Assembly (NCBI GenBank): GCA_032718475.1 | Contig: JAUCBJ010007223.1 | Span: 1,885-65,884 of the forward strand | Reading direction: 5' to 3' | Origin: Nemertoderma westbladi | Taxonomy: Eukaryota; Animalia; Xenacoelomorpha | Length of the DNA stretch: 64,000 bases | Part shown: positions 1-48,592 of the stretch, one piece after another | How positions within the stretch are numbered: the stretch's first letter is position 1 | Layout of the letters: each line of letters begins with the position of its first letter | The notes under the pieces: generated by a model | What the model was told of the DNA's origin: nothing | The model's database searches: none | What the model saw: the letters and a program-made list of their open reading frames with translations, nothing else | Position numbers and translations under genes: made by a program

Positions 1-2
1 TC

Positions 3-2939
3 CGATGTTTTCTCTCTGGACTGCTTGATGAGTTGTAGTTTTACTTCACCATCTAAGAAAGACATGGGATCAGCCATGGTAGGACTTCGTCGTTGTTGTT
101 CATTCATGTACAACACTTTCTTGTCCCAGCGTGTACATACTCCACCCTTTGGTAAAGTAGAGACTACGGCTCCAATAACCATGGAACTCTGATATTCATG
201 CGACTTACCTAACCAGTCCAGTTGTCTACAGATCTCTTGAATTTCATCGGAAAACTCTATAATCCCGCTACTAAGGAAGTGTCGGGGGGCTACTAATTTT
301 GCATACAAATACTTAGCTATGTTATCCTTGTTACCATACCTGATGTTTAATGTATCCCAAACTTGTCTTAATCCATCTGGATGTCCAATAAACTTTAACG
401 CCATTAACTTGGGAGGTCCTTCCAAGCACTTGATGAGGAATCTAAGTTTCTCTCCGTTAGATAGTACAGAGTTCTGTATGCTATCTTTGTAATATTCGTT
501 GAAAGGTAACCATTTCATCTCATCTCCATTGAATTTGACGATCTCTCCCACTTTGACCGCTTGGCGGGCTTCTGTTCTAGCCATCTGACGCGTAAAGCTT
601 TCTTGGGCCATCGTGTTATTTAATATCGAATTATCGGTATATAAATTTCTCGGATCATTATCAGGTCTATAGGGAATATCATTAATAACAGGTCTATAAT
701 CACCCTTAATAGGGTTTGCTATAGGAGTTTCAACTTCACTAGCAGTATAGATGCATGTAGGCTCCACACCTTGCGCATGTAATACTTCAGACCTAACAGG
801 TTGACACAATGTTACAGGGGGTATTGGTATGCCCTTTTGTATATTGACTAATTTGTCGCGTTCTAGCGCGATACTTTGCTGCACTTCTTGCAACTCTGCT
901 CTACCTTCCCTCACTGTTCCCTTAAGTTGGTGGACAGTCTCCTGCATCTGTCCTAGCAGGAGATTCATCCCCCGCCGTCCCTCTTCCACCCACTCAACCG
1001 CCGAAGCGGGAGTCGCCAACATAGTAGCGGGCTGACGCGGGACGACGGGAGACAAATTTTTGATTTCTCTCTCTGCTATCTGGACAGGGATATTCTCTTG
1101 GACTGTTCCACCGGGTACAGGCAGTGTAGTACTATGTAAAGGGAATTTAGAGTTAAGCTCTGGAAGTACAGGGGTCTCTAACACAGAAGTGACTTTGGGA
1201 ACGACAGGCCTAATTATCTCAGGCTCATCAACTATTGTAGAGAGTCTTTGGACCTTAATACTTTGGGCTGTAGGTTCTATACTACTCAAGTCTGTGCTAG
1301 CTAGCTGTCTTCTAACAGCTGGGGGCAAATCAGGCAATTTGCGACGGTAAGATGTTTTTCTACGCCTACTTAGATGAGATCTATTTCCTCCGCCTTCAGG
1401 ATCGGTAGTCTCGCCTTCCTCCGAGGATGTGTATCCCTGGCGCTTGGGAGTAGATTTTCTCATCATCTGCATTTGATTAGCAGTAAACTGTTTATTTATA
1501 CTGTCTTGCGTCTCTTGCAGATTTTCCAACTCCAATTGGATAGTCTCCTCAGAAGCTCTACGTTCTGCTTCTGCCACTGCTGCTTTTCTTTCTGCTTCTG
1601 CTTCTGCCGCCTTTCTTTCGGCTTCTGCTTCTGCCGACTTTCTTTCGGCTTCTGCTTCTGCCTCTGCCGCCTTTCTTTCGGCTTCTGCTTCTGCCGACTT
1701 TCTGTCGGCTTCTGCTTCTGCCGCCTTTCTTTCGGCTTCTACTTCTGCCGCCGCTGCTGCTGCCACCTTTCTTTTCTCTATCCGTTCTTTCTTTATTTGT
1801 TCTTCTCGGACTCTAGTGAGGCGGAGTTTTTCATCACATTCAGCTTGGTTTGCAGCTAACATTTCGGCATCGATTGAGTCCAACACAAGCTTGGTTCCTT
1901 CACTATTAGGGGAAAGTCCAGACAGCCGTCTCCTCAACTCTTCGTCTCCTAGGAATCGCTGATAGTCGGACAAATAAATGTCGATAGCGTCTCTAGTTCG
2001 CGGTTTCTCGGCGGTCTCTTCGCTTTCCGCTTGAGAAAGGGTGACATCAGTTTGTTCTTCATAGGTTGATCTCTCAGCCAGCTGGGATTTCCACTGGGCC
2101 GTTTCCTGTACTTTGAGATCTACCCGATGTAACCAAGTTTTGACAGCAACCTGCAGCGACGTGTCCTGTCTTCTTTTGGAAGTTTCCTCAAAGGCTGAGA
2201 GGATTAGTCGTATGCGTAGGGTTCTTTCGCATATTTGGTATAGCAGCTCTTCCTGCTCTTGAGTTCCTTGAGGTTGTCGAAACAGTTGTTCTTCCAATCG
2301 CTCCAAGGAGCCGAAGAATCCCTGCACATATCCTGCTGCCGACCTCTTCCAAACAGCTGGATCCATTGTATCTTTAGCCACTCCCATCCTGTGTATATCT
2401 TCCCAAGTAGCCTCGGACAGATCCAACGGGAGTCCGAGTCCGGGAAAGTTCCATTGTGACTCGACAATAGACATCAATTCTTCCCTGGCGTATCCCGCAT
2501 AATTATCTTGGGTCGCTCGCTTATTCCTCGCCCAGTCGGCTTGATGTTCCTCCACCGCAATGAATATAGTAGTTAGCACTGCAGCAGGAAGGGTAAGAAG
2601 GGGGTCCGAGTAGACTGTAGCAGCCATCTGCACTCCGCGTTCGGGGGTCAGCTCTACAGTATCCGAACTGCTGGAGCTATCGGGTTGCTGGGAAGTAGGT
2701 TCTTGACCAAGGTGTTGCTGCGATAGGACAACTGCCTCTTGGTTCCGTTTGACCTGTGCCCGAGTGCCTATGATGGACCTATGGTGGATTAGCCTAGGGT
2801 CTGATACTACTGGAGGGATGACCTTTTTTGCAGTAGGAGGTGAGTTGAACTCCTTTCTTAATCGCTCCACACTCCTATCTGTGTCACAGATAGTTGTATC
2901 GATCAGACTGTCTGACAGGTTTTGCTGAGTGTCAGACAT
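3..2939 (-). CDS. Gag-like polyprotein of copy A (N-terminal ~979 aa; open to the window edge, so absent from the ORF track)
   Basis: ATG at 2939 (MSDTQQNLSDSL...) reads without a stop into MAQESFTRQMARTEARQ at 611 (776 codons later). Homologous to ORFs 14577 and 20662 joined; includes a BEL-type Gag core (KFNGDEMKWLPF...LNIRYG). Confidence 0.88.
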   Translation of the reverse strand, partial: MSDTQQNLSDSLIDTTICDTDRSVERLRKEFNSPPTAKKVIPPVVSDPRLIHHRSIIGTRAQVKRNQEAVVLSQQHLGQEPTSQQPDSSSSSDTVELTPERGVQMAATVYSDPLLTLPAAVLTTIFIAVEEHQADWARNKRATQDNYAGYAREELMSIVESQWNFPGLGLPLDLSEATWEDIHRMGVAKDTMDPAVWKRSAAGYVQGFFGSLERLEEQLFRQPQGTQEQEELLYQICERTLRIRLILSAFEETSKRRQDTSLQVAVKTWLHRVDLKVQETAQWKSQLAERSTYEEQTDVTLSQAESEETAEKPRTRDAIDIYLSDYQRFLGDEELRRRLSGLSPNSEGTKLVLDSIDAEMLAANQAECDEKLRLTRVREEQIKKERIEKRKVAAAAAAEVEAERKAAEAEADRKSAEAEAERKAAEAEAEAERKSAEAEAERKAAEAEAERKAAVAEAERRASEETIQLELENLQETQDSINKQFTANQMQMMRKSTPKRQGYTSSEEGETTDPEGGGNRSHLSRRRKTSYRRKLPDLPPAVRRQLASTDLSSIEPTAQSIKVQRLSTIVDEPEIIRPVVPKVTSVLETPVLPELNSKFPLHSTTLPVPGGTVQENIPVQIAEREIKNLSPVVPRQPATMLATPASAVEWVEEGRRGMNLLLGQMQETVHQLKGTVREGRAELQEVQQSIALERDKLVNIQKGIPIPPVTLCQPVRSEVLHAQGVEPTCIYTASEVETPIANPIKGDYRPVINDIPYRPDNDPRNLYTDNSILNNTMAQESFTRQMARTEARQAVKVGEIVKFNGDEMKWLPFNEYYKDSIQNSVLSNGEKLRFLIKCLEGPPKLMALKFIGHPDGLRQVWDTLNIRYGNKDNIAKYLYAKLVAPRHFLSSGIIEFSDEIQEICRQLDWLGKSHEYQSSMVIGAVVSTLPKGGVCTRWDKKVLYMNEQQRRSPTMADPMSFLDGEVKLQLIKQSREKTS

Positions 2940-4299
2940 GTTTAGCTATACAGTTGAATGTCTACTACTATAGTTTCAGTTAAAGCAAGTCTGGTAATTC
3001 AGTATGACCGCAAGCCTAGCGATTTATTACCGATACCGTTACTCGGTGTAACATGATATATATACAATATATTAGAATGCCGGTATGCTTATAATATATA
3101 TAAGTATTATTACAGACTAGATTTGTCACAGAGTACCGGTATATAATTTTAGCACAAATATATATAAATATATAATAGGCCTATAGTGAATACCGGTATA
3201 CAGCTTACACTTATAGTATATATAAATATAATTATGAACTAGAATTAATTACAGAATACCGGTATGATTTCAGCTCAAATTTATAGAAATAAATATAATA
3301 AGCCTATGGTAAGTACCGGTATGTCAATTATTTTTAGAATAATTAAATTTCTGAATATTCTAAGGTTACTTGGTTACTTTAACTTACTTTATTACCGTTA
3401 TTTAAGCAGTAGTTCAACTGATATTGAGACCTAGTTGTTGTATGGCAGGCCTACTATTTATAAATCGTTTGAGTTGATTTATAATAGATATATACCCGTT
3501 TAAAAGGGGTTTTGTCAATATTTGAAATAAATGTTATTATTTCTGGGGGAGTCACTACACAGAAGCTGTACGCTCTCAGTGAAGTGTTACTTATTGAGAC
3601 ACTAAAACTGATAATTCTAATTTACTTAAGTTACTTAATACTACAAATTACTTACGATACGGGTGAGATTAATTCTCTAATTAAACACAACAAAAATATT
3701 ACGTACAAAATTTTTAGGGTAATTTTACAGGAAGTCTACAAACCAGCCTAACAAAGGGTTAGAATTCTGGTTATTACAACGGACAGGGTACTACGGTATT
3801 TGAAATAATAAGTAGTAGTAAATATATTGCACTGTCCAGATAGGAAAATACCACCGCCTGACGACCTATAACCGTATCGCTATAGGTACTACGTTATGTA
3901 TCACGGAGTGTTCCTACCCAGAAGTTAATAGAGCTAACGAATGTGCCTATCAACCACTTTACAACACAAATATACTGCCTACACACTAATTACTCTCGGA
4001 AGCACTGTACGCTAAACCCTAAATTAGGTACAAGTACTGGTACAACAAATAATCAGTAGTTAAATATACTTGAACAGTTAAAAGAACCACGGCATCTGCT
4101 GGAGTGACCAGAGCACAAAGTCACCAGTCTTGTCCTACGCCAAGCAGCCCGTGTAGTACCGGGGTTAATTTAACTATAACGGTATGTATAACAAGCACAA
4201 TTACTGTAGGGATAAACTTGGGGACATGAATGTTGCGAATAATCGCATAAACTCTGAATAATAAATATTACGCTACCCGTACAGAATACTCAAACAAAA

Positions 4300-4840
4300 T
4301 ACAAACCAAACGCTGGCAGACTACCACCAAGCCTAAATAAACTACCGTACGTGTAGCTTCTGAAATGGTTAGTTAGTATGCGTTCTAACACGGTAGTACG
4401 ACTTATTCTTTAAGAGGGGATTGACCTTACAGCATATGGCTGCCCCAACTTACTAACGGCACTTTATCAGACAAACTCCACACATACAGCAATCTCTTCA
4501 GACCTAATAATAGCTAGACAACAATCCAGCCTACAAAATATCTGAGTAATAACTATTACGGTACCTGAACAGACCACACAAACAAACACAGGCTAAAACA
4601 CTGGCAGACTACGATCAAGCCTAAATAAACTACAGTATATGCAGATTCTGAAATAGTTAGTTAGTATGCGTTCTAACACGGTAGTACGACTTATTCTTTA
4701 AGAGGGGATTGACCTTACAGCATATGGCTGCCCCAACTTACTAACGGCACTTTATCAGACAAACTCTACACACGCCGTAATCTCTCTAAACCCAACAACA
4801 GTCAGACAGCAGCTCAGCCTACAATTATCTGAACAATCTG
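4300..4840 (-). repeat. ~288-bp tandem duplication in the leader of copy A
   Basis: GCGTTCTAACACGGTAGTACGACTTATTCTTTAAGAGGGG recurs at 4380 and 4668; boundaries approximate. Confidence 0.8.
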
Positions 4841-5187
4841 AGCAGGGTCACACGCCTTCTGCTCAATATTAGCCTACTAGTAAATAAAACCGACAGAAAT
4901 AAGTAGAATCTCAATAAAAATTCAGGGCTGCAGTCCCTGATTAAGTACTAAGACCTACCGGTATACACTAATCAAATTCGAATAATACTAATGTACTGAT
5001 ACAGCAGTACCGGTTAGGACAGTTGGGCCTACAGACCTACAGAAGTACCGGTTCTGGCAGTTGGACCTACGGACCTACAGCAGTACCGGTTCTGGCAGTT
5101 GGGCCTACTGACCTACAGAAGTACCGGTTCAGGTTTACCGGTCACTACGGTATTTTGCAACCTTATTGCTTACTGCAATAAGATCGT

Positions 5188-5197
5188 TAACTGTTAT
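5188..5197 (-). promoter_or_regulatory. Non-tRNA primer-binding site candidate of copy A
   Basis: Minus-strand ATAACAGTTA directly follows the LTR end and is complementary to LTR-internal 5962-5971. No TGG tRNA-type PBS is present. Confidence 0.65.
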
Positions 5198-6416
5198 TGT
5201 TCGCGCTTTTGAAGACCTTTAGCAGTTTAACCTGCCAAAATTTATATGTCTTTTAGTTAATTAAAACACCTTTAGCATACGACAATATTTTATGCTAATA
5301 AACAAAACATTAGCCGAAGTCAGCCCATGCGCGATTATTCACCCGATGGCTACGCCCGGGAGGCTGAATTCGGATGCTTAAATTTTATTATTGCAGTGTA
5401 AGGTTGCAGTGTAAATCTACTGTATTATTCAATTGATCACTAATATATAATTTCTGACAGATATTATTAGCTTTCGGGAAATATTAACAGTTCCTTTAGG
5501 ACGTGGCGCTCTATCTATTTAAACAGAACTAGGACTTATACTAAACGCAACGATACTGCTTATGATTAAAGTATAAGGCGCATTCTTTAGGAAATGCTTT
5601 GTTACCAATCACAATCATGCACACTATTCTGCCGACCGTCAGTAAATTTGATCACACATAAAGAGAGCAGCAATTGACTCATGTAGGGTCTGCTAAATAA
5701 CATTAGATTCAATACACGCCACATTGATATAAAATCGCAATTGTTATGTATAGCCTGTCTCTCTAACCTGTAGTGTATCAAGAAAATTGGGAATTTTGGG
5801 TGATTTATCCGTATTCTCCAAAGAGCAATATTTCCTCAATAAATCGATACAATTAATAACTGACGGTAAATAACAGTACAAACAATATAATTAATAAGTA
5901 AAGTTCGGAAGAATAATATGATTATTAGTGAGTTAGTTAGGTAGGTAGGTAGGTAGGTAGGATAACAGTTATACTTTCGATAATTTAAGCAGTTTTACTA
6001 GAGTTCTTCCCAAAAGCCGGTGTTATGGCGAAAAATGGGAACACAACAACAGAATCATATGAAGAATCATATGACTAGATGACTATACGAGGATACCAAC
6101 TACCCTTATTCCCCGAAGCTCCCGTCCAACACAGAGGATGAGCATACAGATAGGAAATTCAGTTCAGTAGCTCTGGGATAGGTCAAAATCAACGCCCACT
6201 CAAATTCTATTGGCCGATACGGACAGCAGGGCTGAGGCAACCTCCCTAAGCTGGTTGGCCGATTAAACGGAGCCCAGATACCTTCGTACAGCACATCAGC
6301 CAATAAGCTGGTAGCTTGCACTATTTTGCTATAGATCCCTTTTAGAGTATTCTAGCGACCGGGGGGGAACTGGCCAGCAAGGCAAACGAATCAGTTATCC
6401 CACAAAAGCTTTTACA
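5198..6416 (-). repeat. 5' LTR of copy A (1219 bp)
   Basis: Minus-strand TG...CA termini match the copy B LTR ends; the downstream ~770 bp aligns with 10690-11447. Confidence 0.85.
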
Positions 6417-7420
6417 GCTCAATTACAAGACGTGCGTGACGTCACTGTGACGTCACTGTACTCACGGTGAAAGCAAAGTCCATCAAATATGAGATGGCTC
6501 TGTTCAAGTGTCAAGTTAGGGGGATGGGGGTGGGGTGGTGTTGGGGGGGGGGGGATGAGCAATGAGACACCTCCAATGTTATATAGTGCATTGTACTTGG
6601 CATAATGAACCCAGTGAACTATTCTTGTTGAACAGTTAGAGCCCAGCGTCTAGTAGGTCTACATAAAAGTGGAAAATATTGATGGAGTTCCACCACTTCC
6701 CTGATTCTGATAATCGAAGCCACATACGGTAAGTAGCACATTTGTTACAGTTACATTTTGGCATCTAGCGGTTGATAAATAAAATATAAACATTAAACAA
6801 ATTACAATAGAATAGGTTACAGTTTTATTTTTGAGAGTAATCAGCTGTTATTTGCGTCAAATTTCCCCTGGAGAGGGATTAATTTTTATTGCGTCCAGTT
6901 TTATTGCTCCCTCTCTGAGTCATTTAGTTATTTTATGAGTTATTTGTCCACGGGGAGTTAACGAAACCCTCTGCTAAAAAAAAAGGCTGATAAATAATGT
7001 CATAAGGATATAATGAGATTTACAAGAGTCTCAATTGTCAAACACTGTAAAATAATATATGCGCTGAACCATAAAGAAAATAATAATTAATATTTAGGGT
7101 TTGTTGATAATTACTTAAAGACAGCGAACCTGCTAATTTTAAATTATTGCTTATACAAAATGGTGTCATTGCGTTACGGGTACTGTCGCGCTACGGCTAA
7201 TTATCGCGTTACGGCTATACTGTCTTGGTTTTACATAAGGAATCATTATCAATATTATTCTATGGTAAATATAAATTAATACTTTTCAATTGTGCTTATT
7301 TCTTTTGATTATTTTAGTATAATAATTAAAAATATATATATAATATTCTATGGTGTTTACGTACAGATGAGCTGCGAATAATTTAATGTAATAATGTTTT
7401 ACAGCATGGGGGGGGGGGGG

Positions 7421-7625
7421 TGTAAAAGCTTTTGCGGAATTGCCCGGTTATTTTTCCTTATTTTTCCCGTAAAATACTCTGTAGTTGGTTTAGTAGGCGT
7501 AAGAGGCCGTATTATTGCTGTATCGGTGTTTTTTAGAGGACCTAAGAGCTATTTCTTCCCTATGTGCACTTTGGAAGACATGGTTGGTGATTCTATGGCA
7601 ATTCTATGACGCAAAAGGGGCTAGA
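7421..7625 (+). repeat. 5' LTR of copy B, left segment
   Basis: Matches 26377-26581 with 3 substitutions. Confidence 0.9.
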
Positions 7626-7801
7626 CGGTCAGGGCCCTAAACCGATTAGGTTCTCTGTTCGCAGAACACCGAACACTATTCCGGCCACGGAACTAGTCCA
7701 GCAGAATGCCTTTATAGAATCCTGGGATTTGTGGGACGAGAGGATCTCAGCAACTAAGCGAAAACGAACAATAGGATGTTCCTAGACCCCCCCCCCCCAA
7801 A

Positions 7802-9630
7802 ATTTATCTAGAAGACTTTTTCCCATATACATTACGTTTCAAAAGTCTACGGTTCTCCGGCTAGGGCCAATTTGAGTCAAAAAGTCAGCCTCCCTAGCAA
7901 CCTCGTTGCTATGGAGATAAGTCCAGAACCGCTAATGCTACGGACTTGGGACCGGCGCCAAACTGTAGGCAGCATATGGGTTTACCTTCACAGAGCTTTT
8001 TTTTGGAGCGATCAGATCATGATCTTGACCATGATCAGCAAAGATCAGTTTTGATCAGCAATCGGACACTCAAGGCTTGCTCCAATCGAAAAACTTAACA
8101 TTACAAAAAGATTCAGCGACCCCACATTAGTCATGATTCCCGTTAAAAGATTTTAAAAAAAGTGAATTCTTACTGGTCAAAACGCAAGATCATGATCGCG
8201 CAAAGATCGGACTTCGTAAAATCGTAACTAAGCATTTTGGATATAAACAATTACTGTAGGAAACGTTCAGAACACCGCCTTGAGTCGATTAAAAAAAAAA
8301 TTGGCTCAATCGGACAACCGGTTCTCGAGATCTGATACCTGATCATTAAAGATCATATTTTTCGGTTTTTTCCAATTTTCTCGAAAACTTTGTTTGAGAC
8401 CCCCGATTTTTTTTTTACGAATCGACTTCTATGGTGAAGGGGCAACTTTTAAGCATTTCGAAATTTTCAAAAAGCGATTTGATCAGGCCGCGATCAGAAA
8501 AGATCGTGTTTTTGGTTTTATTTCGAAGACCAAGTCCTGGGAGTTCACCGTATGGAAAAACTTAACATCACAAAAAGATTCCTCACCCTCGAATTATGGG
8601 GGGTAGCCAAAATTTGGGCATAAAAAAGTTCAAGTCTAGTGGGTCAAAACTCAAGATCATGATCGCGAAAAGATCAGTGTACTTAAAATCGAATCTAAAC
8701 ATTTTTTTAATAAACATTTATTGTAAGAAATGTTCAATGGTCTATTCTGAGTTGATTAAAAAAAAAATTGGCTCGATCGGTCAACCGGTTCTCGAGATCT
8801 GATACCTGATCATTAAAGATCATATTTTTCGGTTTTTTCCAATTTTCTCGAAAACTTTGTTTGAGACCCCCGATTTTTTTTTTACTAATCGACTTCTATT
8901 AAGAAGGGGCAACTTTTAAGCATTTCGAAATTTTCAAAAAGCGATTTGATCAGGCCATGATCAGGAAAGATCGTGTTTTCGGTTTTATTTCGAAGACCAA
9001 GTCCTGTGAGTTCACCGTATGAAAAAACTTAACATTACAAAAAGATTCCTCACCCTCGAATTAGGGGGGGTAGCCAAAATTTGACCATAAAAAAGTTCAA
9101 TTCTAGGGGGTCAAAAGATCATGATCGCGAAATGATCATTTTTTCGAAATTACTTCTGAGCATTTTGGAGCAAAACTGTCAAATTAAAAAACATTCACTG
9201 GAGTGTTCTAAGTAGATTAAAAAAAATTTCGACTCAATAGGCCAACCGGTACCGGAGATATGGTCGTCCAAAGTCTGCTTCCGGTAATTCGAAAATATTT
9301 CGAAAACCCTTGATCGAATTTTTTCCTTGAAAATATGTGAATGTACAGTTAGTGGACCCGCATCTAACGATATATCACAATCCATATTTCAGATGACAGG
9401 TACCGGTGAAATCAGACTTTACCGAAAAAAATTTAAATTTTTGCTACTCATGTCTGACTATCTCGAAAACTATAATAGGTATGGAAATACTTTCACTGCA
9501 AGAAATGTTCGCCTATCCAATGCGCTTCTAACTCTGTGCTCGGATTTTGCATAGTGTCAAAACCTACAACTTAACCCCCCCAGCGGAGGGAACGGAGTGA
9601 CCGGAGCGCCAGTACTATCTTTCATTATTA
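7802..9630. mobile_element. Probable non-autonomous element with internal ~465-bp tandem repeats (HINE/Helentron-like), inside the 5' LTR
   Basis: About 3 units (TTGGCTC...CAACCGGTTCTCGAGAT at 8301 and 8768, diverged at ~9229), no ORF, GC-rich terminal motif at 9576-9617. Family and boundaries are inferred. Confidence 0.4.
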
Positions 9631-10430
9631 TGAAGTAATAAGGGCGGTGGGTGGGGTAGGTGGTGAACACTATTTATAGGGTGGAGGGAGGGTCTAGTAT
9701 ATTACTTTAGGATATTTGATTTCTTTGCAATATAGTTTAGCTGCCTCAGTCTTATTTGTAATATGTTATACATTATACCAAATTATATCAAGTTTTAACA
9801 TACTACATTGTCTACCTGTAGGAGAAATATACAATGTAGGGCTCATAATATATTTATAAATAGATTTAGTATATTTACATTGTATAACAGAGTTAATTGA
9901 TACTATTACGGTATTATACTAAAGACGCCGCTTTGATATATCTAATCAAATGGCAATTTCTTGTATATTATCTATTTCCCTATCTTGGGTATATCATTCA
10001 ATTTCTAAAACTATAATAATAAACATTTACTTCACTTCTTGTTTACTCGCATGGATATATTGATATAAAACACTTCAGTATAATATGTTATAGGGCCGAA
10101 CGCAGATTAATCGGAATAATATGTTTAATTATTATTACAATTGGCACATTGATGTAAGTAGTACATGAGTTTGATAAAATAATTATGAATCTGTATCTTA
10201 TTCTACTTTGTCTATATGATTATGTTATATAATAATGTTACTTTATCACTTTGGTTTAAACCGATCTCCTTTACTATTACTTACTACTTATACTACTACT
10301 ACTACTACTATTACTACTACTGCTACTGACTACTACAGAGTTATATATTATAAGAGGACGGGGTTCGTGATTATTAGTTATTATACAAGTGCCCCTCGGC
10401 TATAGAGAGTCCACCCTCGGTTGCTTACTG

Positions 10431-11447
10431 GATACTCTTGAACAGTAGTTACTATGACGACGGTTAACAGCTGATATTCATACGTGTCGATTTTCTTTGT
10501 TCTACGGCTTCTCTTAGTTCAGTCAACCAATCAGAGCGTTTTTACGGCTCTTGTACAGAAATTTCCGAGAAATCACGCAATGCATTATGGGCAGTGTTAT
10601 CATTCTGTCCTGAGCCAGGAAGAACGGCTTTGGAATATTTTGTGCTGTTCTGCTTTTAGCCTAACACTAGTAGGCTTAATTATAAGGACATATATCCGTT
10701 ATCTGTGCAACTCAATACTTACCTACTAACCTAACTCAACTGGGCAATGCATATATCTTGTTGTACATACTTTTATATTGTTATACTGCTATTTACTGTC
10801 GATTATTCATTATATGGTGATGAAATATTATATTGGAATAACGAGAAATAACCCCGAAAACCCAATATTCTTGATATACCGAAGGTAAGAGAGACAGGTT
10901 ACATATAACGATTGTGACTTATGTTAAAGTGGTTTGAAGTGAATCTAATGTTATCTGATAGACCCTACATGAGTCGGTCTGTGTTCCTTTTATATGTGAC
11001 TAAAATCAGTGAAGATCGGCAGATCAGTGTGCAGTATTGTGCAGCATTGTGTATGAGTGAGACTGATAACGAAGCATTTCCTAAAGAATGCGCCATATAT
11101 GTGAATTGTAACTAAGCCATATCGTTGCGTGTAGTTTAAGTCATAACTCTGTTTATATAGATAGAGCGCCACGTCCTAAAGGAACTGCTAATATTCCCCG
11201 AAGGTGAATAATATTGTCAGAGATTATATAACACGATCAGTCGAATAATACAGTAGGCTTACATAGCAATACGATTAAGCCGTCGAACCCAATCTCCCGG
11301 GTATATCCAGCGGGTGAATGATCGCGCACGGATTGGTTTCAACTAGTGTAGTGAATCAAATACTTGTCAGAGGCTAAAAGCGATTTATTATCTAGAAGAC
11401 ATCCTAATTTGGCGGGTTAAACTGCCAAAGGTCTGAAAGCGCGAACA
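10431..11447 (+). repeat. 5' LTR of copy B, right segment
   Basis: Appears identical to 26580-27596 at a constant offset of 16149; the three short ORF-track translations in each are identical. Confidence 0.93.
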
Positions 11448-11462
11448 ATAACGGATATATGT
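11448..11462 (+). promoter_or_regulatory. Non-tRNA primer-binding site candidate of copy B
   Basis: ATAACGGATATATGT directly after the LTR is the exact reverse complement of ACATATATCCGTTAT at 10688-10702. Confidence 0.7.
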
Positions 11463-11638
11463 GTCTGTATTGCAGTGTAGGCATTAAATACAGTTTAATA
11501 TTGTTCTGGTAAGAACAATAACGGATATCGCTTCTGTATTGCAGTAGGCAATAAAGCTGAAGTACCGGCAACCGGTACCCAGTAGGCCTGACTACCTAAC
11601 CACCCGGACCGGTACCTACAGCAGTACAGGTACAGCAG

Positions 11639-12504: not shown

Positions 12505-12674
12505 TACAGCAGTATTATTCGATTTTGATTATTATATACCAGTAGGTCTTAATAATTAATCGGGGACGCCTGGTTTTTATTGGGATTTTACTTAGGCCTA
12601 TTTCTGTCAGTTTTATTTATTTGTAGGCCAGTATTGAACAGAAGGCGTGTAAGCCTGATCAGATTGTACAGACA

Positions 12675-13245
12675 ATTTGTAGGCTGGGCTGTTGTCTGAT
12701 TGTTGTTAAGTCTGAACGGATTGCAGTGTGTGTAGATCATCTGTCCGATAAAGAACGGTTAGGAAGTAGGGGCAGCCAATAGCTGTAAGGTAAACCCCCA
12801 TCTAAAGAATAAGTCGTACTACTGGGTTAGAACGCATACTACCTAACCATTTCGGAGTCTGCATGTCCTGTAGTTTATTTAGGCTTGAGAGTAGTCTGCC
12901 ATCGTCTAGTCTGTACTTTGTTTGTGTAGTCTGTACAGGTAGCGTATAATATTTATTTAGATAATTTGTAGGCTGGATAGTTGTCTGGCTGTTATTGGGT
13001 CTGAAGGGATTGTAGTGTGTGTAGAGTGTCTGTTCGATAAAGTGCGGTTAGGAAGTAGGGGCAGCCAAAGCTGTAAGGTAAATCCCTTCCTAAAGAATAA
13101 GTCGTACTACTAGGTTAGAACGCATACTAACTAACTATTTCGGAATCTGCACATACTGTAATTTATTTAGGCTTGATAGTAGTCTGTCAGTATTTAGTCT
13201 GCATTTTGTTTGAGTGGTTTGTACGCGTAGCGTAATATTTATTAT
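12675..13245 (+). repeat. ~288-bp tandem duplication in the leader of copy B
   Basis: AAGAATAAGTCGTACTAC at ~12805 and ~13093; homologous to 4300-4840. Confidence 0.8.
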
Positions 13246-14576
13246 TCAGAGTTTATGCGATTATTCGCAACATTCATATCCCCAAGTTTGTTCCTACAGT
13301 AATTGTGTTTGTTATATATACCGCTATAGTTAAATTAACCCCGGTACTACACGGGCTGCTTGGCGTAGGTAAAGACTGGTAATTTTGTGCACCGGTCACT
13401 CCAGCAGATGCCGTGGTTCTTTTAGCTGTTCAAGTATTTTTAACTACTGATTATCTGTTGTACAAGTACTCGTACCTAATTTAGGGTTTAGTGTACAGTG
13501 CTTTCCGAAAGTAATTAGTGTAGGCATTATATTTGTGTTGTAAAGTGGTTGATAGGCACGTACGTTAGCTCTATTAACTTCTAGGTAGGAACACTCCGTG
13601 ATACATAACGTAGTACCTATAGCGATACGGCTATAGGTCGTCAGGCGGTGGTATTTTCCTATCTGGACAACGCAGTGTATTTACTACTACTTATTATTTT
13701 CAAATACCGTAGTACCCTGTCCGTTGTAATAACCAGATTTCTAACCCTTTGTTAGGCTGGTTTGTAGACTTCTTGTAAAATTACCCTAAAAATTCGTATT
13801 TGTGTTTTTTTGTAAATTTTTGTGTTTATTTAGAGATTGAAATCTCACCCGAATTGTACGTAATTTGTAGTATTAAGTAACTTAGGTAAATTAGAATTAT
13901 TTGTTTTAGTGTCTAACAAGTAGCACTTCACTGAGAGCGCACAGCTTCTGTGTAGTGACTCCTTCCCAGAAATAATAACATTTATTTCAAATACTGACAA
14001 AACCCATTAAACGGGTATATATATATTATAAATCAAATCTAACGATTTATAAATAGTAGGCCTACCATACAACCATTAGGTCTCAATATCAGTTGGACTA
14101 CTGCTCAAATAACAGTAATAAAGTAAGTAAAGTAACCAAGTAACCCTAAAATTCAGAAATTCAATTATTTAAAATAATTGATATACCGGTATTTACGATA
14201 GGCCTATTATCTTTATTTCTATAAATTTAGGCTGAAATTATACCGGTACTGTAATTAATTCTAGTCCAGAATTATACTTATATATACTACAAAACAAACT
14301 GTAAGCTGTATACCGGTATTCCCGATAGGCCTATTATATATTTATATATATTTGTGCTAAAAATTATACCAGTATTCTGTGATAAACCTAGTCTGTAATA
14401 ATACTTATATAGTTATATATACTATAAGCATACCGGTATTCTAATATATTATATATATATCACGCTACACTGAGTAGCAGTATCGGTAATTAATTACTAG
14501 GCTAGCAGTTAATACTGAATTACTAGACTTGCTTAGACTGTAATATAGCAGTAGGCATTCAACTGTGTAAACAAAC

Positions 14577-16719
14577 ATGTCTGATACTAAACAGAACCTG
14601 TCAGACAGTTTATTAGATGTAACTATCTGCGACTCAGATAGGAGTGTAGAACCGTCTGGACCTAAATTCAGTTCACCTCCTACTGTGAGGAAGGTCATCC
14701 CTCCTGTAGTAATATCAGACCCTAGGCTAATCCAACACCGTAGGTCTATCATAGGCACTCGAGCTCAGGTCAAGCGGGACCAAGAAGCAGCGGAACAACA
14801 ACAACCCGCGAGCCAAGAACTTATTTCTCAACGGCCCGACAGCTCCAGTAGTGAGGATACTGTAGAGCTGACACCCGAGCGCGGGGCAAAGATGACGGAT
14901 GCGGTTTATTCGGATCCCCTTCTCATCCTTCCTGCAGCCGTACTCATTAGGTTATTGATTGCGGTGGAAGAACACCAGATCGATTGGGCGAGAAGTAAGC
15001 GATCGACTAAAGATAGTTATGCGGGATACACAAGGGAAGAACTGAAGTCTATTGTCGAGTCGCAATGGAACTTCCCCGGACCCGGACTCCAGTTTGATTT
15101 ATCAGAAGCTGTCTGGGAAGATATACACAGGATGGGAGTACCCAAGGAAACCATCGATCCAGCTGTGTGGAAGAGGTCCGCAGCCGGATACGTACAGGGA
15201 TTCTTCAGCTCCATGGAGCGAGTAGAAAAACAACTGTTTCAACAACCACAAGGACCTCAAGAGCAGGGACAGCTGCTTTATCAAGTTAGAGAAAGAATTC
15301 TACGAATCAGGCTAATCTTATCGGCCTTTGAGGAGGCTTCTAAAAGAAAACAAGACACGTTGTTGCAAGTTGCCGTAAAGACTTGGTTTCAACGGGTGAG
15401 TCTCCAAGTTCAAAGAGCTGCCCCGTGGAAATCGCAGTTAGATGAGCGCTCAACACTTGGAGAATCCACAGACGCTACCTTTTCCCAAGTGGAAAGTGAA
15501 GCGACAGCAGAGAAGCCGCATAAGAGGGATGCCATTGACATCTATCTGTCAGACTATCAACGTTTTTTAGGAGATGAAGAGTTGAGGAGAAGGTTAGATG
15601 GACTTAGCCCTAATAGTGAAGGAGCCAAGCTTGTGTTGGACGCAATCGATGTGGATAGGATAGCTGCGAACCAAGCTAAATTTGATGAACAACTCCGCAT
15701 CGCTAGAGTCCAAGAAGAACAAGTCAAGAAAAAACGAATAGAAGACAGAAAGATAGCGGCCTTGGCAGCTGCAGTGGCAGAAGCAGAAAGAAAAGCGGCT
15801 TTGGCAGCTGCAGTGGCAGAAGCAGAACGAAAGGCGTCTGAAGAGACTGCCCAACTAGAGTTAGAAAATCTTCAAGAGAGGCAAGATAACTTTAATAAAC
15901 AGTTAACAGCTAGTAATATGCAGATGATGAATCGATCTACTCCCAAAAGACAGGGATATACATCATCTGAGGAAGGCGATACCACCGATGCTGAAGGCGG
16001 GGGAAATAGATCTCATCTAAGCAGACGTAAAAGAACATCCCACCGTCAGAAATTGCCTGATTTGCCTCCAGCTGTTAGAAGGCAACTAAATAACACCAAC
16101 TTAGGTAGTACAGAACCCACAGACCAAATAATTAAAATAGAAAGACTCCCTACTATAGTAGATGAGCCTGAAATAATTAGGCCTGTTCTTGAAATCACCC
16201 CTTCAGTGATAGACACACCTGTGCTCCCTGAAGCTACCTCTAAATTCCCTCTGCACAGCACTAAGCTACCTGTGCCCAGTAGAACAGCCCATGAGACAGT
16301 GCAGGTCCTGGACCCTGAGCGAAATATTCATGATTTGTCGCCCGTTGTCCCTCGTCCGCCCGCTACAACGTTGGCGACTCCCGCTTCGGCGGTCGAATGG
16401 GTGGACGAGAGACGGCGGGGGATGGATCTCCTGCTCGGGCAGATGCAGGAGACTGTTCAGCAATTCAAGGGCACAGTAAGGGAAAGTAGGCTAGAGTTGC
16501 AAGAAGTGCAGCAAAGTATCGCGCTAGAACGCGATAAATTAGTAAATACACAAAGGGGTATACCACCACCCTCGGTAACAATGTGTCAACCTGTTAGGTC
16601 TGAAGTATCTCATGCGCAAGGTATGGAGCCTACACGCATATATACTGCTAGCAAAGTAGAAACTCCTATAGTGAACCCTATTAAGGGTAATTATAGACCT
16701 GTTGATAATGACATTCCCT
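14577..16719 (+). pseudogene. Gag-like polyprotein of copy B, N-terminal part (interrupted by a LINE)
   Basis: Homologous to the copy A ORF up to ...NDIP; the last 17 codons of the 731-aa track ORF come from the LINE. Confidence 0.88.
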
Positions 16720-16825
16720 TCAATTTGAATTTCCCACTATTGACAAGATTTAGGGCCTACACCCAGCACTGACATACAGACATACACGGGTTCATTTATT
16801 ATTAATTGACAATTATTACTGTATT

Positions 16826-19800
16826 ATGGCACTACTCGTGGTAATGGCGGTTCTCGTTATGGTTGGTCGATTGCTGGCGGCAGATGTAATTCCTGTGAGA
16901 AAGGATCCGGTGAGCCTTCAACCAATTCCCGTATTGGATGTCTTCACAGTGTTCCAAATCAACGGAGAATATCGTGGCTGGCGACTACCAACTGTGGCGG
17001 ATCTCTGGACAATGAACGGTGTGAGTCTCTTTGCTCGAAGTAGGAGGAATGCTGGTCCAGTGAGATTTAGTGGGTGGACTTCCCAACTCTGCGCGTTGAT
17101 TCTTGCTGGAGATGTCGAGGTAAATCCAGGGCCTAGCAGGACGATGAAGAAGACCTGTGCGATATGTAAACACGGAGCAAACTCGCGAAGCAAGATCGTT
17201 GAGTGCGAGAAATGTGTAACCTTTTCCCATGCCAAGTGCTACCGTAGGTCTTTAAATAAATATTCCACCCTCAGAAACAGTAACAGCCCAATTTATTTTT
17301 GTAACAGTTGTATTCTATCTGAACTCCCATTTTTTGAAGATTCCTTAGATAACGAACTTGACGAACCTATCGCCTCACCCTTGCAACAACCAAGTGAGGC
17401 CGAGGGTGATACCTTCCAATATTTTAAGAGAAAAGGCTTACATTTTCTACATCTAAACGTGCGATCTTTGCTTCCAAAAATATCGGAACTTAAAATTCTA
17501 TCAGTTAAAACGAACGCCGCAATAATCACAATTTCCGAAACATGGCTGGATGATACTGTTTCTGAGGAGGTGAGGTACACATTAATAACTATGTAATTGT
17601 ACGCAAGGATAGGAATAGGGATGGAGGCGGGGTGTGTATGTACATCAGGAATGACTTAGCTTTTAATCGTAGAGAAGAATTAGAGACTTGCGATGAGATT
17701 TTACTGCTCGAACTTTTACTACCAAAAACTAAACCAATTATTATCGCTAGCGTTTACAGGCCGCCAAAACAAGATAATTTTTTAGAAAATCTAGAAAATA
17801 AAATCTTAGTGAATCTTAGGTCTGACTGTGAATTTTATTTATTAGGAGATTTTAATATTTGTTTTCATCAAAAAGCCTCAGCTATTTGTAGAAAATATCA
17901 AAGTGTTCTGAATTTATTTGGTTTAAAACAATTAATAAGTGAATCAACTAGAATTACAAGTAAAACTTCCACCCTATTAGATCATATTGTTATTAATAAT
18001 AGAGATATGGTATCTCAGTCTGGTGTTTTATCTATAGGTGTAAGTGATCACTTTATTGTTTTTTGTACAAGGAAATCTCAAAAGTATTTTTTTGGGGAAC
18101 ATAATACTGTCAAAATTAGGTCTTTAAAGAACTACAGTAAGCAACAATTTATAAATATTTTAACTAACTCCAACTGGGAACCATGTTTTAAGGCAGCTAA
18201 TATTAACCTTGCTTATGCAATTTTTAAAAATTTATTTTTGAACGCTCTTGATTCTGTAGCACCCATTAAAGAAGTTCACTTAAAACAAAGAACAGAACCG
18301 TGGATGACTGCTAATATTCTTAAGGTTATAAAGGATAGGGATTGCTTATTGTATAGATTTAGAAAATATGGTATTTTAACTGATTATAATAATTACTGTA
18401 GGTTAAGGAACTTAGTACAGCGTGAAATTAAAAAAGCGAAATCCGAATTTTTGTACAACAAAATTGATGAAAATAAGGATAATCCAAAATCACTTTGGAC
18501 GACATTAAAATCTTTAGGGTATAAAAGCACAAATTCAAAATCGAATATAGTCTTGCAGGAAAACGGGGAGCTCATTCATGAGCCTAAGATTATAAGTAAT
18601 TTATTCAATAACTATTTCATTAATGTAGCCTCGAATCTTGTCCAAAAATTGCCAATTGCTAAAAATAAATACAGTCTAAATTCGGAAATACTAAACAAAT
18701 TTTACTCGGAAAAGGTTAAGAATTCTCCAAAGTTATTTTTACAGCCTGTCTCAGAAGCTTATGTATTGAAAAATCTTGTCAGTATTTCGTCATCTAAAAG
18801 TACTGGACTGGACCAGATTCCAGCAAGGTTTCTTAAGGATGGTGCGGAAGTGCTAAAGATTCCTATTACTTACATAATTAACTACTCAATTTTAGAAAAT
18901 GTAGTCCCGGATGATCTTAAATTGGCGAAGGTTGTTCCAATATTTAAAAAGAACAGTAAATTAGAAACCAGTAATTACAGGCCCATTAGTGTGTTAAGTA
19001 TTGTATCCAAAATTCTTGAACGTTCAGTGTACACTCAGCTAGAGTTCCATCTTAACAAACTCAATTTAATATACGAATTTCAATCTGGCTTCCGTAAATC
19101 TTACTCTACAGATAGTTGTCTAATCAATTTGACGGATAATATTAGGTGTAACAACGCGAAGGGATTGTATACCGGTATGGTAATGTTAGATTTACAGAAG
19201 GCCTTTGACACGGTTGATCACGAAATATTACTAGGAAAACTAGATCTTATGGGTGTGGGCTCAATTAATTGGTTCAGGTCATACTTATCAGATAGGGGTC
19301 AAGTTGTAGATATAAATAAAACTCAGTCCTCAGTTCAGAAAATTAAGTGTGGAGTACCGCAGGGTAGCATCTTAGGGCCGTTGCTGTTTGTATGTTACGT
19401 AAATGATATGATTAGTAGCATAGATCCGGACTTTAAACTAATATTATACGCTGATGATAGTGCATTAATCTTTTCTCACAGGGACCCGGACACAATTTGT
19501 GAAAAACTAGGCAAAGTTCTAGAATCCTGCAACGAATGGCTCATCGATAATAAGCTTTCAATTCACTACGGCAAAACTGAAAATATTTTATTCGGCTCGA
19601 AAAGAAAATTAAACAAGTTCCGAAACTTTGAAGTAATTAGCAACGGCCACAAAATTGAAAATAAAAAAGAAGTTAAATATTTAGGCTCCAAATTGGATTG
19701 TAGTTTATCCGGAGAAAGCATTGTTAAAAATATTATTGCAAAAGTTAATGGCAGACTAAAGTTTCTTTATCGACATAAAAATAGCCTAAATTTTAATTCT

Positions 19801-20304
19801 CGTAGGTTGCTTTCTTCATCTTTAATTCAATGTCATATTGACTATGCAAGTTCATCTTGGTATGAAGGCTTAACTAAAAATCTCAAAAATAGGTTACAAA
19901 CAGCTCAAAACAAGGTAGTACGTTTTATTAATGATTATAAACCACGTCACCATTTAACCCCTGAAGATTTTAATCAGTCTGGTTTAATTAAAGTAGACAG
20001 TAGAGTAAAGCAGCTTCGGCTCAACCATGTACATAAAGTTTTCAATGATAACTGCCCTAAATACTTAAATCAAAAATTTACCAAACTGAGTGATACACAT
20101 TCATACGGCACCAGAGCCAGCACATCAAATTTTTATGTTCCCAATTGTATATCCTTTGAAAGCGAAACGTTTTTCTTTAATGGAATAAAGAATGGGAATT
20201 CCTTACCGAATAACATTAAAAATATTAAAAATGAACATGCCTTTAAGTCTGCAGTAAAATCCCATCTCCAAGACCAGTGCAAATTCTTATATAGCAGTAT
20301 TTAG
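16826..20304 (+). pseudogene. LINE ORF: leader, 2A peptide, PHD-like finger, APE endonuclease and reverse transcriptase, with one frameshift near 17570
   Basis: GDVEVNPGP; CAIC...CEKC...HAKC...CNSC; HLNVRSL, ISETWL, then a frame change to RKDRNRDGGGVCMY, YRPP, GDFN, SDH; RT motifs DLQKAFDTVDH, GVPQGSILGP, YADD, YLG. Confidence 0.92.
17108..17134 (+). other. 2A-like ribosomal skipping motif GDVEVNPGP
   Basis: Matches the D(V/I)ExNPGP consensus and is preceded by hydrophobic LCALILA; codons 95-103 of ORF 16826. Confidence 0.85.
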
Positions 20305-20602
20305 TTTAGTTCAATATTAAATAGGTGCATGTGCAATAATTAGTAATAATGTTCAATTTTGTATTTCTTGTATCTTATTTAGTTTAAATTATATAATTAT
20401 TCTATATACAGTAGTTAGTTTAGTTTGTATTGGTAACCAAGTAACTTGAAGGACCCCCTTGGAAATAAGCTGCAAAGCTTTAGGGGTTATCCTTTATGTT
20501 ATGTTGGACAATACTTACTATACATTAATAATTTTACTGAGTTAATGTATTGGTTTCTATTGTTTGCATAATATATAAATAAATCTATCTATCTATAACC
20601 CT

Positions 20603-23115
20603 ATAGACCTGATCATAATCCGAGAAATTTATATACCGATAACTCGATATTAAATAACACGATGGCCCAAGAAAGTTTTACGCGTCAAATGGCTAGAACC
20701 GAAGCCCGGCAAGCGGTAAAGGTGGGAGAGATCGTCAAGTTCAATGGAGATGAGATGAAATGGTTACCTTTTAATGAATATTATAAAGATAACATTCAGA
20801 ACTCTGTACTATCTAATGGAGAGAAACTTAGATTCCTCATCGAGTGCTTGGAAGGATCTCCCAAGTTAATGGCGTTAAAGTTTATTGGACATCCAGACGG
20901 ATTAAGACAAGTTTGGGATATACTAAACATCAGGTATGGTAATAAGACTAACATAGCTAGGTATTTATATGCGAAATTAATGGCGCCCCGAAAGTTTCTT
21001 AGCAGCGGGATTATAGAATTTTCCAATGAGATTCAGGAGATCTGTAGACAGCTAGATTGGTTAGGTAAGTCTCATGAATACCAGAACTCTATGGTTGTAG
21101 GAGCCTTAGCATCTACTTTACCAAAGGGTGGAGTAGGTACACGCTGGGACAAGAAGGTGTTATATATGATGGAACAGCAACAACGAGACCCTACCATGGC
21201 TGATCTCATGTCATTCCTAGATGGAGAAGTGAAATTACAGCTCCTAAAACAGTCTAGAGAGAAGACACCGGAAAACAAGGTAAGTGAGAAACCCGTTTCT
21301 AGGAGAAAGGTAATACCAGTTTGTTATACAGACGACGGCGAAAGCCAGGCTTCTCAAGAGGAAGACAGCGGAAAAGACACTGAAAGATCTTACTATGACA
21401 ATAAAATGCCTAAAGACCAGGTAAGTAAATCCAAGTCTCGACCCAATGACAGAAGAGAACCGGTAAGAAAAACCCCTCCTACGTCTCCCAAGAGAATTCA
21501 TGTAAGAAAGCCCGAGGAAAGAACAAGTGTGCACCACACAGCACAGGTTAAAGTAAGTAACATCAAACCCAAATGTGTGCTGTGCGACGGGCCCCACCGC
21601 TTGAATATGTGCGATGAATTCTTAAAGAAATCATTAAAAGAGAGACGGGAAGTCATGTGGGATAAGCGGTTGTGTTATAATTGCCTCAGACGAGGACACC
21701 AACGGCGAACCTGTTACTCCGACGCAAGGTGTGCAAAGTGCGGCGCAAAACATCATATCTTGTTGCACACGGAATTCGAACGAAACAGCCCGAGTCAGGT
21801 AAGTGAGTCCGAACTACATGTCCAATTCAGTGATGTGAACGACACTGATCAATCTGAGATGGAAGGATTCTATACGGATGAGTTCTCCGACGAAAACGAA
21901 TCCTGTTACCTGACAAATACCGCAGTGTATCGAGCACTCATGTATGAGAAAGACACAGACAGCGACCTCACCCTAACTACTTCAGATCAACAACAATCTT
22001 GGAAAGCGCCAACTTCAAATGTAGGAATCCGAGAATTTCCTGTAGTCCAGTTACGGGTCCACGGACCTCAGAAGAGCTATATAGTGAACGCCCTCCTGGA
22101 CTCCGGTAGCACAGGAACATTCATCGATAAAGAACTAGCCGAAGTCATCTTTGCTGGACAACCCAAGTTCCGAACCAAGCTAAACATGTCAGGGATCATG
22201 CAGGTTTGGAATTCTACTGTAGCTGCCGACTATTATATAGGTGAGTTGTCCACTCCACAGGATAAACTAGGAGAATACAGTATAAGGTCAGTAAAAATGG
22301 TGGCAATAAAGAACTTCGCTACCACCCAAGTGGAACCTTATAATTGGGACGAAGATGATCATGTCCAACAACTTAACATCCCTAGATTCGACACCGATTA
22401 TCCTGGAGTACAAATATTAATCGGTCAAAACGCGCATGAGGCGCTGGAGACATTAGAGAAACGACCTACTCAACCGCAACCACTTCAGACCTATGCGGTA
22501 AGAACTAGAGTAGGTTGGTACCTTACTGGACCTTCCCGTAGAACGCTCAGGGAAAGACTGCTTCAAGATCGCGTCTGCCAGGTGAGTGAATGGGAAGACG
22601 ATACTAGTGAGGGAGACGACCCAACTGAGGGAACACCACACTCCTCAGATAATGACAATCTTAACTCCAATGTAGATCAATGGAGATATTGCCCCAAGAC
22701 GATGAATATAACTGACATCGCTTCCAGAGGAGCAACTCCTCAAGAACTGACAGATACTACAGACCGGTTAGGTGAACCCGACTTCCTGAGTAAGGAGGAT
22801 GAATGGCCTCCCCATCTTACTCCGACTGAGATTAGACCAGCCAAGGGAGCGGAGAAAGTCAAACCTAAAACCCGGACGGGTGGATCGGAGTTATTTGAAC
22901 CCGGGATAGATCTGTCGGTATTACATATTGCCAGGGACGACGCCGTGGATCTGGACCTCCCCACCGCGAGTGGATCCTTCATGAAGATCAGAGAGAGCGA
23001 TTGGAGCTCTGGAACATCAGACGTCTCGCAGGGACTCTTACCTCTCCTGCAGGGAGCGACGGACCACTATAGCTCCTGGAATCGGCTTTGTAAGGCCGTC
23101 GTGTACTTAGAGTGA
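20603..23115 (+). pseudogene. Gag core, Zn knuckles, aspartic protease and RNase H C-terminal remnant of copy B (RT deleted)
   Basis: CVLCDGPHRLNMC, CYNCLRRGHQRRTC, CAKCGAKHHILLH; ALLDSGST; ILIG; then directly QWRYCPKTMNITDIASRG and YSSWNRL, which are BEL/Pao post-RT motifs. No YxDD and no integrase. Confidence 0.88.
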
Positions 23116-26368: not shown

Positions 26369-26376
26369 GGGAGCGG
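26369..26376 (+). promoter_or_regulatory. Polypurine tract
   Basis: GGGAGCGG directly before the TG of the 3' LTR. Confidence 0.6.
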
Positions 26377-27596
26377 TGTAAAAGCTTTTGCGGAATTGCC
26401 CGGTTATTTTTCCTTATTTTTCCCGTAAAATACTCTGTAGTTGGTTTAGTAGGCGTAGGAGGCCGTATTATTGCTGTATCGGTGTTTTTTAGAGGACCTA
26501 AGAGCTATTTCTTCCGTATGTGTACTTTGGAAGACATGGTTGGTGATTCTATGGCAATTCTATGACGCAAAAGGGGCTAGATACTCTTGAACAGTAGTTA
26601 CTATGACGACGGTTAACAGCTGATATTCATACGTGTCGATTTTCTTTGTTCTACGGCTTCTCTTAGTTCAGTCAACCAATCAGAGCGTTTTTACGGCTCT
26701 TGTACAGAAATTTCCGAGAAATCACGCAATGCATTATGGGCAGTGTTATCATTCTGTCCTGAGCCAGGAAGAACGGCTTTGGAATATTTTGTGCTGTTCT
26801 GCTTTTAGCCTAACACTAGTAGGCTTAATTATAAGGACATATATCCGTTATCTGTGCAACTCAATACTTACCTACTAACCTAACTCAACTGGGCAATGCA
26901 TATATCTTGTTGTACATACTTTTATATTGTTATACTGCTATTTACTGTCGATTATTCATTATATGGTGATGAAATATTATATTGGAATAACGAGAAATAA
27001 CCCCGAAAACCCAATATTCTTGATATACCGAAGGTAAGAGAGACAGGTTACATATAACGATTGTGACTTATGTTAAAGTGGTTTGAAGTGAATCTAATGT
27101 TATCTGATAGACCCTACATGAGTCGGTCTGTGTTCCTTTTATATGTGACTAAAATCAGTGAAGATCGGCAGATCAGTGTGCAGTATTGTGCAGCATTGTG
27201 TATGAGTGAGACTGATAACGAAGCATTTCCTAAAGAATGCGCCATATATGTGAATTGTAACTAAGCCATATCGTTGCGTGTAGTTTAAGTCATAACTCTG
27301 TTTATATAGATAGAGCGCCACGTCCTAAAGGAACTGCTAATATTCCCCGAAGGTGAATAATATTGTCAGAGATTATATAACACGATCAGTCGAATAATAC
27401 AGTAGGCTTACATAGCAATACGATTAAGCCGTCGAACCCAATCTCCCGGGTATATCCAGCGGGTGAATGATCGCGCACGGATTGGTTTCAACTAGTGTAG
27501 TGAATCAAATACTTGTCAGAGGCTAAAAGCGATTTATTATCTAGAAGACATCCTAATTTGGCGGGTTAAACTGCCAAAGGTCTGAAAGCGCGAACA
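26377..27596 (+). repeat. 3' LTR of copy B (1220 bp)
   Basis: TGTAAAAGC...GCGCGAACA; equals 7421-7625 joined to 10431-11447. Confidence 0.93.

Positions 27597-48555: not shown

Positions 48556-48592
<37 letters not shown>

Follow-up and report, generated by a model that had tools for sequence, protein, structure and literature searches.

A BEL/Pao retrotransposon family that probably primes reverse transcription from its own LTR

Two diverged copies of one retrotransposon family in the window (by which we mean the whole stretch of 64,000 nucleotides that was analysed) carry, immediately past the 5' LTR, a primer binding site (PBS) that is complementary to a segment of their own LTR. Judging from the sequence, we think that this BEL/Pao family probably self-primes in the manner of Tf1 and that the match is kept largely by copying, a reading to which we give a probability of about 0.72. 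Transcription would start at or upstream of the LTR segment, which would fold back to reach the PBS over a distance of some 750 nt. An RNase H would cut just after the GTTAT with which the segment ends, leaving a free 3'-OH. Reverse transcriptase (RT) would then copy U5 and R up to the cut and jump to the 3' repeat. During plus-strand synthesis the RNA primer would itself be copied and the PBS thereby rewritten. A mutation in the LTR segment would in this way pass to the PBS by copying, and selection would need only to tolerate it.

The window is rich in repeats, and in a self-comparison its positions 1-5890 turned out to be an inverted and diverged copy of 10773-21272. The element on the minus strand is called here copy A and the one on the plus strand copy B. 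Copy B spans 7421-27596, between two 1220-nt LTRs with TG...CA ends and with G-runs at both flanks of the element, and the 3' part of copy A lies outside the window. Their main parts are the following:

5198..6416, minus strand: 5' LTR of copy A, 1219 nt, TG...CA
3..2945, minus strand: gag ORF of copy A, open for 981 codons up to the window edge
7421..11447, plus strand: 5' LTR of copy B, split by a 2.8-kb insert at about 7626-10427
14571..23115, plus strand: gag-protease region of copy B, split by a LINE at about 16720-20598
26369..26376, plus strand: purine-rich tract before the 3' LTR of copy B, likely the PPT
26377..27596, plus strand: 3' LTR of copy B, 1220 nt

Regarding the identity of the family, the gag-protease region of copy B contains DUF1759 (Pfam E 1.7e-12), three zinc-knuckle motifs and an aspartic protease motif. 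The Cys/His columns and the protease Asp column are invariant in comparison with the four homologues found among 3250 candidate proteins, and all four of these carry DUF1759 (PF03564) as well. Such a Gag with three zinc knuckles and a protease, LTRs within 0.2-1.2 kb and a PPT are what is expected of BEL/Pao elements. The pol part of the definition, namely RT, RNase H and integrase together with placement in an RT phylogeny, has no counterpart in copy B, where no RT or integrase ORF was found between the protease and the 3' LTR. These 3.2 kb (23115-26376) hold short frames only, the longest being of 129 codons (24986-25372). We read copy B as a non-autonomous BEL/Pao derivative, which would have to borrow RNase H in trans from an autonomous partner; we found no such partner. 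The family looks abundant in the sequencing runs of the host, as 10,698 contigs could be aligned in run X1. BEL/Pao elements are restricted to metazoans, according to the accessible part of PMC3601003, so that the window is probably of animal origin.

From the comparison of their sequences, copies A and B are two subfamilies of one BEL/Pao family, with 80% identity in the N-terminal gag DNA (1712/2143). The 3-kb leader of both copies shows, at 4253-4785 and at 12670-13243, the same 288-nt tandem duplication and another one of 123-127 nt, and these duplications, being common to A and B, are older than the subfamily split. The LTRs of copy B differ at 4 of the 1225 positions compared (pieces of the 5' LTR against the 3' LTR). 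Three of the differing sites fall within the first 205 nt (7421-7625 against 26377-26581) and one in the other 1020 nt, an unevenness that is possibly due to recombination or conversion.

The sites that would take part in priming are these:

5962..5971, minus strand: LTR segment of copy A (candidate self-primer), 10 nt complementary to the PBS
5188..5197, minus strand: PBS of copy A, which starts with ATAAC, lacks TGG and adjoins the LTR end CA at 5198
10688..10702, plus strand: LTR segment of copy B, 15 nt complementary to PBS unit 1 and 11 nt to unit 2
11448..11462, plus strand: PBS unit 1 of copy B, adjoining the LTR end at 11447
11511..11560, plus strand: second 'U5 tip + PBS + leader' unit of copy B, with the PBS at 11518-11528

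The first-pass annotation had given a ten-base PBS and a ten-base LTR segment for each copy, and the four 10-mers are all present in the sequence; the ten-base core in copy B corresponds to 10693-10702 for the segment and 11448-11457 for the PBS. In both copies the match is contiguous, which makes a primer formed across a splice junction unnecessary, the two sites are about 750 nt apart and the 3' T of the segment pairs with the first base past the CA of the LTR. This is where the 3'-OH of a primer must sit, and the position of the segment's 3' T beside the LTR end therefore fits the geometry of priming. The PBS of copy B is duplicated, the second unit lying 70 nt downstream with an 11-bp match, and the leader of copy A aligns to this second unit, with which it is orthologous. 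A PBS that adjoins the LTR and has at least 10 nt of complement in its own LTR is found in both copies, at offset 0, with 10 nt in A and 15 and 11 nt in the two units of B. The LTR identity between A and B is about 50% upstream of the segment (209/418) and 78% in the downstream columns (491/633), and this step places the segment near the usual border between a variable U3 and a conserved R-U5.

Some Cer elements of C. elegans may encode their own primer RNA. An element-encoded tRNA primer was sought here, and none was seen: Rfam gave 0 hits over 4000-14600 and ARAGORN 0 tRNA genes in the whole window.

A primer supplied by the host, either a tRNA fragment or another small RNA, with the LTR match being secondary, has to be considered since the ICTV describes BEL/Pao elements as tRNA-primed, with an 18-nt PBS for tRNA-Arg or tRNA-Gly and a poorly understood replication (PMC8742986), and priming by half-tRNAs exists in Ty1/copia (accessible part of PMC6317226). 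As a control we used 80 distant BEL/Pao-like metagenome loci (80 retained out of 126), which have 22-47% protein identity and no DNA in common with this LTR. A tRNA-type motif lies upstream of the match in 47 of these 80, which also favours a host primer, and no listed motif was present in the other 33, many of them truncated. Nine control loci had a usable LTR end defined from paired repeats, and in all nine TGG lies within six bases of this end and self-matches do not exceed 8 nt; these nine include several loci of one and the same family, as well as one neighbouring element (L022). None of the defined LTR ends among the 80 loci was followed by a self-type PBS. In copies A and B, however, no TGG follows the LTR and the 18-nt tRNA complement of BEL/Pao elements is missing. 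Furthermore, a fixed primer would hold the PBS constant, yet the PBS changes in step with the LTR. We regard priming by a host RNA as very unlikely. Two wider searches can be added here: the conserved DNA pattern of the U5 end had 0 matches in metagenome contigs, and none of the 19 pattern hits from a protein-level scan of viral contigs was a relative.

The first-pass annotation had also claimed that two of the ten positions differ between the copies and that both changes are matched on the partner strand at homologous positions. The LTR segments are indeed positionally homologous, since they occupy the same alignment columns in all three MAFFT modes, a check that had been named in advance, and PBS positions 6 and 8 are mirrored. 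Nevertheless, over 11 positions only two of the three differences between A and B are compensated, as position 11 in copy A has A opposite A (a one-base bulge there allows a 12-bp alternative), and this uncompensated position counts against Tf1-like self-priming.

The pairing between the segment and the PBS is far beyond chance. Of 5000 dinucleotide shuffles of LTR A, 67 contained a match that was 10 nt or longer at offset 0-5, and a match of 15 nt or more came up once in 5000 shuffles of LTR B. When the segment of one copy is set against the PBS of the other, the matches reach only 6 nt, and the pairing energies, which are -9.0 and -10.9 kcal/mol with the own PBS, become -5.5 and -2.4 kcal/mol. 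There are 27 helices of at least 7 bp in homologous columns of both copies, among which this one (10 bp) is the longest, and a shared 10-bp Watson-Crick helix was obtained in none of 150 column shuffles. Two mirrored changes arising by independent drift from a complementary ancestor would be expected in about 5-8 of 10,000 cases when no condition is set, and in about 1 of 400 when each side is taken to have two changes, in a comparison that comprises two full copies only.

The two arms, lying some 750 nt apart, form an inverted repeat, and it could be argued that they are an inverted repeat at the DNA level (either what is left of a small DNA transposon or the outcome of conversion between inverted repeats) or simply a coincidence. 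Transposon ends also co-vary, and a lone 10-nt match occurs in about 1% of the shuffles. However, the right arm starts exactly past the CA of the LTR and is missing after the 3' LTR, so that a DNA-level repeat is largely refuted by position, and there is very little chance that both matches, their placement in homologous columns and the mirrored changes would all occur together. Explanations of this type seem highly improbable to us.

It had been inferred that the pairing is maintained by selection or by copying during replication and that this gives independent support for self-priming. The first part is borne out by the homologous columns and by the tests above, whereas the second needs qualification. 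Should the PBS be a copy of the primer, a single mutation rather than two would account for each 'compensation', and the covariation would then attest copying or pairing and be no independent proof of priming. In more general terms, covariation between PBS and LTR can record copying rather than selection. Under Tf1-like self-priming, copying of the segment into the PBS would explain the matched changes without two independent mutations. The extension of the match in copy B is instructive in this regard. PBS positions 12-15 read ATGT in unit 1 of copy B, CGCT in its unit 2 and CGAT in copy A, and the changed bases of unit 1 match LTR sequence further upstream, as would be expected if a longer primer had been copied. 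To judge from these bases, the extension appears hard to explain by selection, given that 10-11 pairs are enough elsewhere, and easy to explain by primer copying.

A different possibility is that the helix is a selected long-range RNA structure, serving packaging, dimerisation or a translation switch, and that the element uses another primer. The covariation attests pairing, not priming, and R-U5 has other shared helices, such as one of 7 bp with three two-sided changes (11289-11295 with 11330-11336). In addition, copy A has a strong leader hairpin beside the PBS (-14.3 kcal/mol) that competes with the helix. The predicted probability of the helix was 0.8-1.0 for RNAs starting at the segment and ending 40 nt past the LTR, and 0.5-0.6 in copy B when only the 10-nt core was included. 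It fell to about 0 in copy A with 150 nt of leader, where forcing the helix costs 3.0 kcal/mol, and did not exceed 0.5 in any of four runs with 100 nt upstream; in copy B a segment of 11 nt folds preferentially onto the second PBS unit. That the helix is weak or lost in longer RNA windows speaks against the Tf1-like reading, but single-sequence folding flips with the window chosen and was not treated as decisive. On the other hand, a purely structural helix leaves the element without a primer site, does not explain why the duplex ends exactly at the LTR boundary, and accounts neither for the 15 nt of copy B nor for the sharp variability past the segment. We therefore consider this explanation rather unlikely.

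Other pairings around the PBS were also found, some of them candidates for flanking helices:

5388..5397, minus strand: LTR arm of copy A, 10 bp with leader 5181..5172, candidate flanking helix
5329..5334, minus strand: TCGCGC of copy A, complementary to the U5 end 5206..5201, candidate flanking helix, same in B
11256..11272, plus strand: LTR arm of copy B pairing with leader 11467-11482, candidate flanking helix; 34/300 shuffles as stable
11322..11327, plus strand: TCGCGC of copy B, complementary to the U5 end 11439-11444
11408..11429, plus strand: 8-bp U5 hairpin that both copies retain across two one-sided changes

The candidate flanking arms, a 6-bp arm at the U5 end and a leader arm, lie at homologous places in both copies. 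In A the leader arm forms 10 pairs without a mismatch, in the first unit of B about 16 pairs with a single mismatch, and between the copies one pair is compensated, one is a wobble and one is broken. By energy none of the arms clearly surpasses the shuffles, of which 34, 46, 170, 19 and 59 out of 300 were as stable as the respective arms, the value of 170 being that of the leader arm of copy A. By run length, 1445 and 1303 of 2000 shuffles equalled the arms of copy B, and only the leader arm of copy A (49/2000) stands out. At position 11272, most of the X1 contig depth (525,835/622,553) carries the letter of copy A.

Public contigs of the family were aligned from four of the seven listed runs, three of organism A and one of organism B, and they define one more feature:

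10664..10703, plus strand: block conserved among the family contigs, which ends with the candidate primer and is followed by hypervariable sequence after 10701-10705

The contigs follow copy B up to 10701-10705 and then depart from B and from each other, the depth going from 125,377 to 5,456 in X1 and to 0 in X2, X4 and X5. Their loose ends are mutually only 63-78% alike, among the 12 of 14 rows listed. This hypervariability begins at the very site predicted for minus-strand transfer under self-priming, although an abrupt divergence after the segment would also fit an unconstrained spacer. Six contigs (4 of X1 and 2 of X2) depart from B after 10701, one base short of the segment end, and by their sequence the last T of the segment may be missing in them; this early departure is a further point against Tf1-like self-priming. 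Three contigs leave the leader of B at 11458-11459, after PBS position 11-12, which is a weak hint of a core of 11-12 nt. Contigs over the segment carry up to 6 other letters, and that none of the variants among the 40 of 167 rows listed falls in the segment or the PBS is not a sign of conservation.

The position of the segment admits one more interpretation, in which it belongs to U3, between a TATA-like box and the start, and the RNA forms a circle through pairing of this segment, present near its 3' end, with the PBS and is cut after the segment, the genomic RNA itself being the primer. In copy B a TATAA precedes the segment by 12 nt, with an AT-rich motif at the same place in copy A, and this TATAA would put the start downstream of the segment, contrary to what Tf1-like self-priming needs. 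Moreover, the block 10664-10703, conserved among the contigs, may represent a core promoter, and the 15-nt extension in B fits a primer without a fixed 5' limit. However, copy A has no TATAA at that place, first-strand transfer would need a second RNA molecule, no precedent was found in the literature searched, and a start with ATAAC is also seen in Tf1, where priming is from the 5' end. We hold this interpretation to be clearly improbable; if true, it would be a third mode of priming for LTR reverse transcription, besides tRNAs and the 5'-end priming of Tf1.

Other signals were noted in the LTRs. Neither AATAAA nor ATTAAA occurs in the LTR of copy B. A pyrimidine tract ending in AG (10640-10661) lies directly before the conserved block in B and in one X2 contig, with an AG at about the same place in copy A. 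The tract is a possible 3' splice site within the LTR. Just past the candidate primer, copy B has ATACTTACCT at 10715-10724, which is not kept in A, where a (CCTA)n run is found; ATACTTACCT equals the 5' end of U1 snRNA, probably by chance.

The model for the proposed mechanism is Tf1, whose self-priming is established, and we cite for it the accessible parts of the sources. In Tf1, pairing with the PBS involves the first 11 bases, and the RNase H cut falls between base 11 and base 12 (PMC7175516). The Tf1 PBS starts with the five bases ATAAC, about half of the cDNAs carry the reverse-transcribed PBS and most 3' ends have untemplated bases (PMC11042837). Tf1 also needs two flanking duplexes of PBS-adjacent sequence with the LTR, the 'pretzel' (bioRxiv 10.1101/2022.12.06.519325). 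Self-priming has been proposed for Tj1 (PMC4600332, accessible part) and for Tcn1 and the TAR lineages of Ty1/copia (PMC6317226, likewise).

As in Tf1/Tf2, Tj1, Tosmo and the Tf1/sushi group including Tcn1, the PBS of our copies lies right past the CA, has about 11 nt of own-LTR complement and is not of the tRNA type. With Tf1 they share the first five PBS bases ATAAC, and flanking helices of the 'pretzel' type are possible. In contrast to Tf1/sushi, which are Ty3/gypsy chromoviruses, Gag and protease are here of the BEL/Pao type, the loop is of about 750 nt and copy B is without an RT/RNase H gene. Membership in Tf1/sushi is defined by chromovirus proteins, and the domains found are those of BEL/Pao; thus, from its sequence, the element would work like Tf1 and yet is no member of Tf1/sushi. 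For the Ty1/copia TAR elements (Houba, Osr-1), self-priming is predicted from a match to the LTR that is 10 nt or longer and begins 0-5 nt past the 5' LTR (accessible part of PMC6317226), a rule with which both A and B comply, but those elements belong to another superfamily and to plants, and self-priming is also a prediction there. The likeness to Belpaoviridae (Semotivirus) consists of the DUF1759 Gag, the three zinc knuckles, the aspartic protease, the TG...CA LTRs of 1.2 kb and the PPT; the difference lies in the PBS, which is for tRNA-Arg or tRNA-Gly in that family (PMC8742986) and for neither here, and in the lack of pol in copy B.

Self-priming is therefore already described in other groups, and a BEL/Pao case was not found in the literature searched, which leaves supplements, Repbase and most subscription papers outside its scope. 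The accessible parts of PMC3118150, PMC9094657, PMC8220671, PMC6934838, PMC5341516, PMC10680173, PMC5443660 and PMC3601003 contain no mention of it. If our reading is true, priming without a tRNA has arisen in each of the three LTR superfamilies, and the ATAAC start common to this family and Tf1 points to a common preference in cleavage or priming. Self-priming might also be an escape from host control that acts through the supply of tRNAs or through fragments of them. Families of this kind would be missed by annotation tools in which a tRNA site is obligatory.

The window contains several other repeats. The LINE in the gag of copy B (16720-20598), presumably CR1/L2-like, has an ORF1 with a PHD finger, an endonuclease-RT ORF2 and short TCTA repeats at its end. 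The 2.8-kb insert in the 5' LTR of copy B (7626-10427) is non-coding and includes, besides a (TAC)n run, a tandem duplication of 467 nt. Positions 44580-48591 hold a poly(A)-tailed element with one ORF of 1219 codons, a weak RT hit and a C-terminal Cys/His motif, which looks like a non-LTR element with a restriction-like endonuclease, of the CRE kind. It is embedded in a 17-nt satellite, which extends further to either side of it and is possibly its target. A 26-nt satellite occupies 50180-60554, with 399 copies and about 94% matches. Finally, a 39-nt tandem array of about 102 copies (35033-38861) is strongly G-skewed and has long stop-free frames on the minus strand, with no Pfam hit in them.
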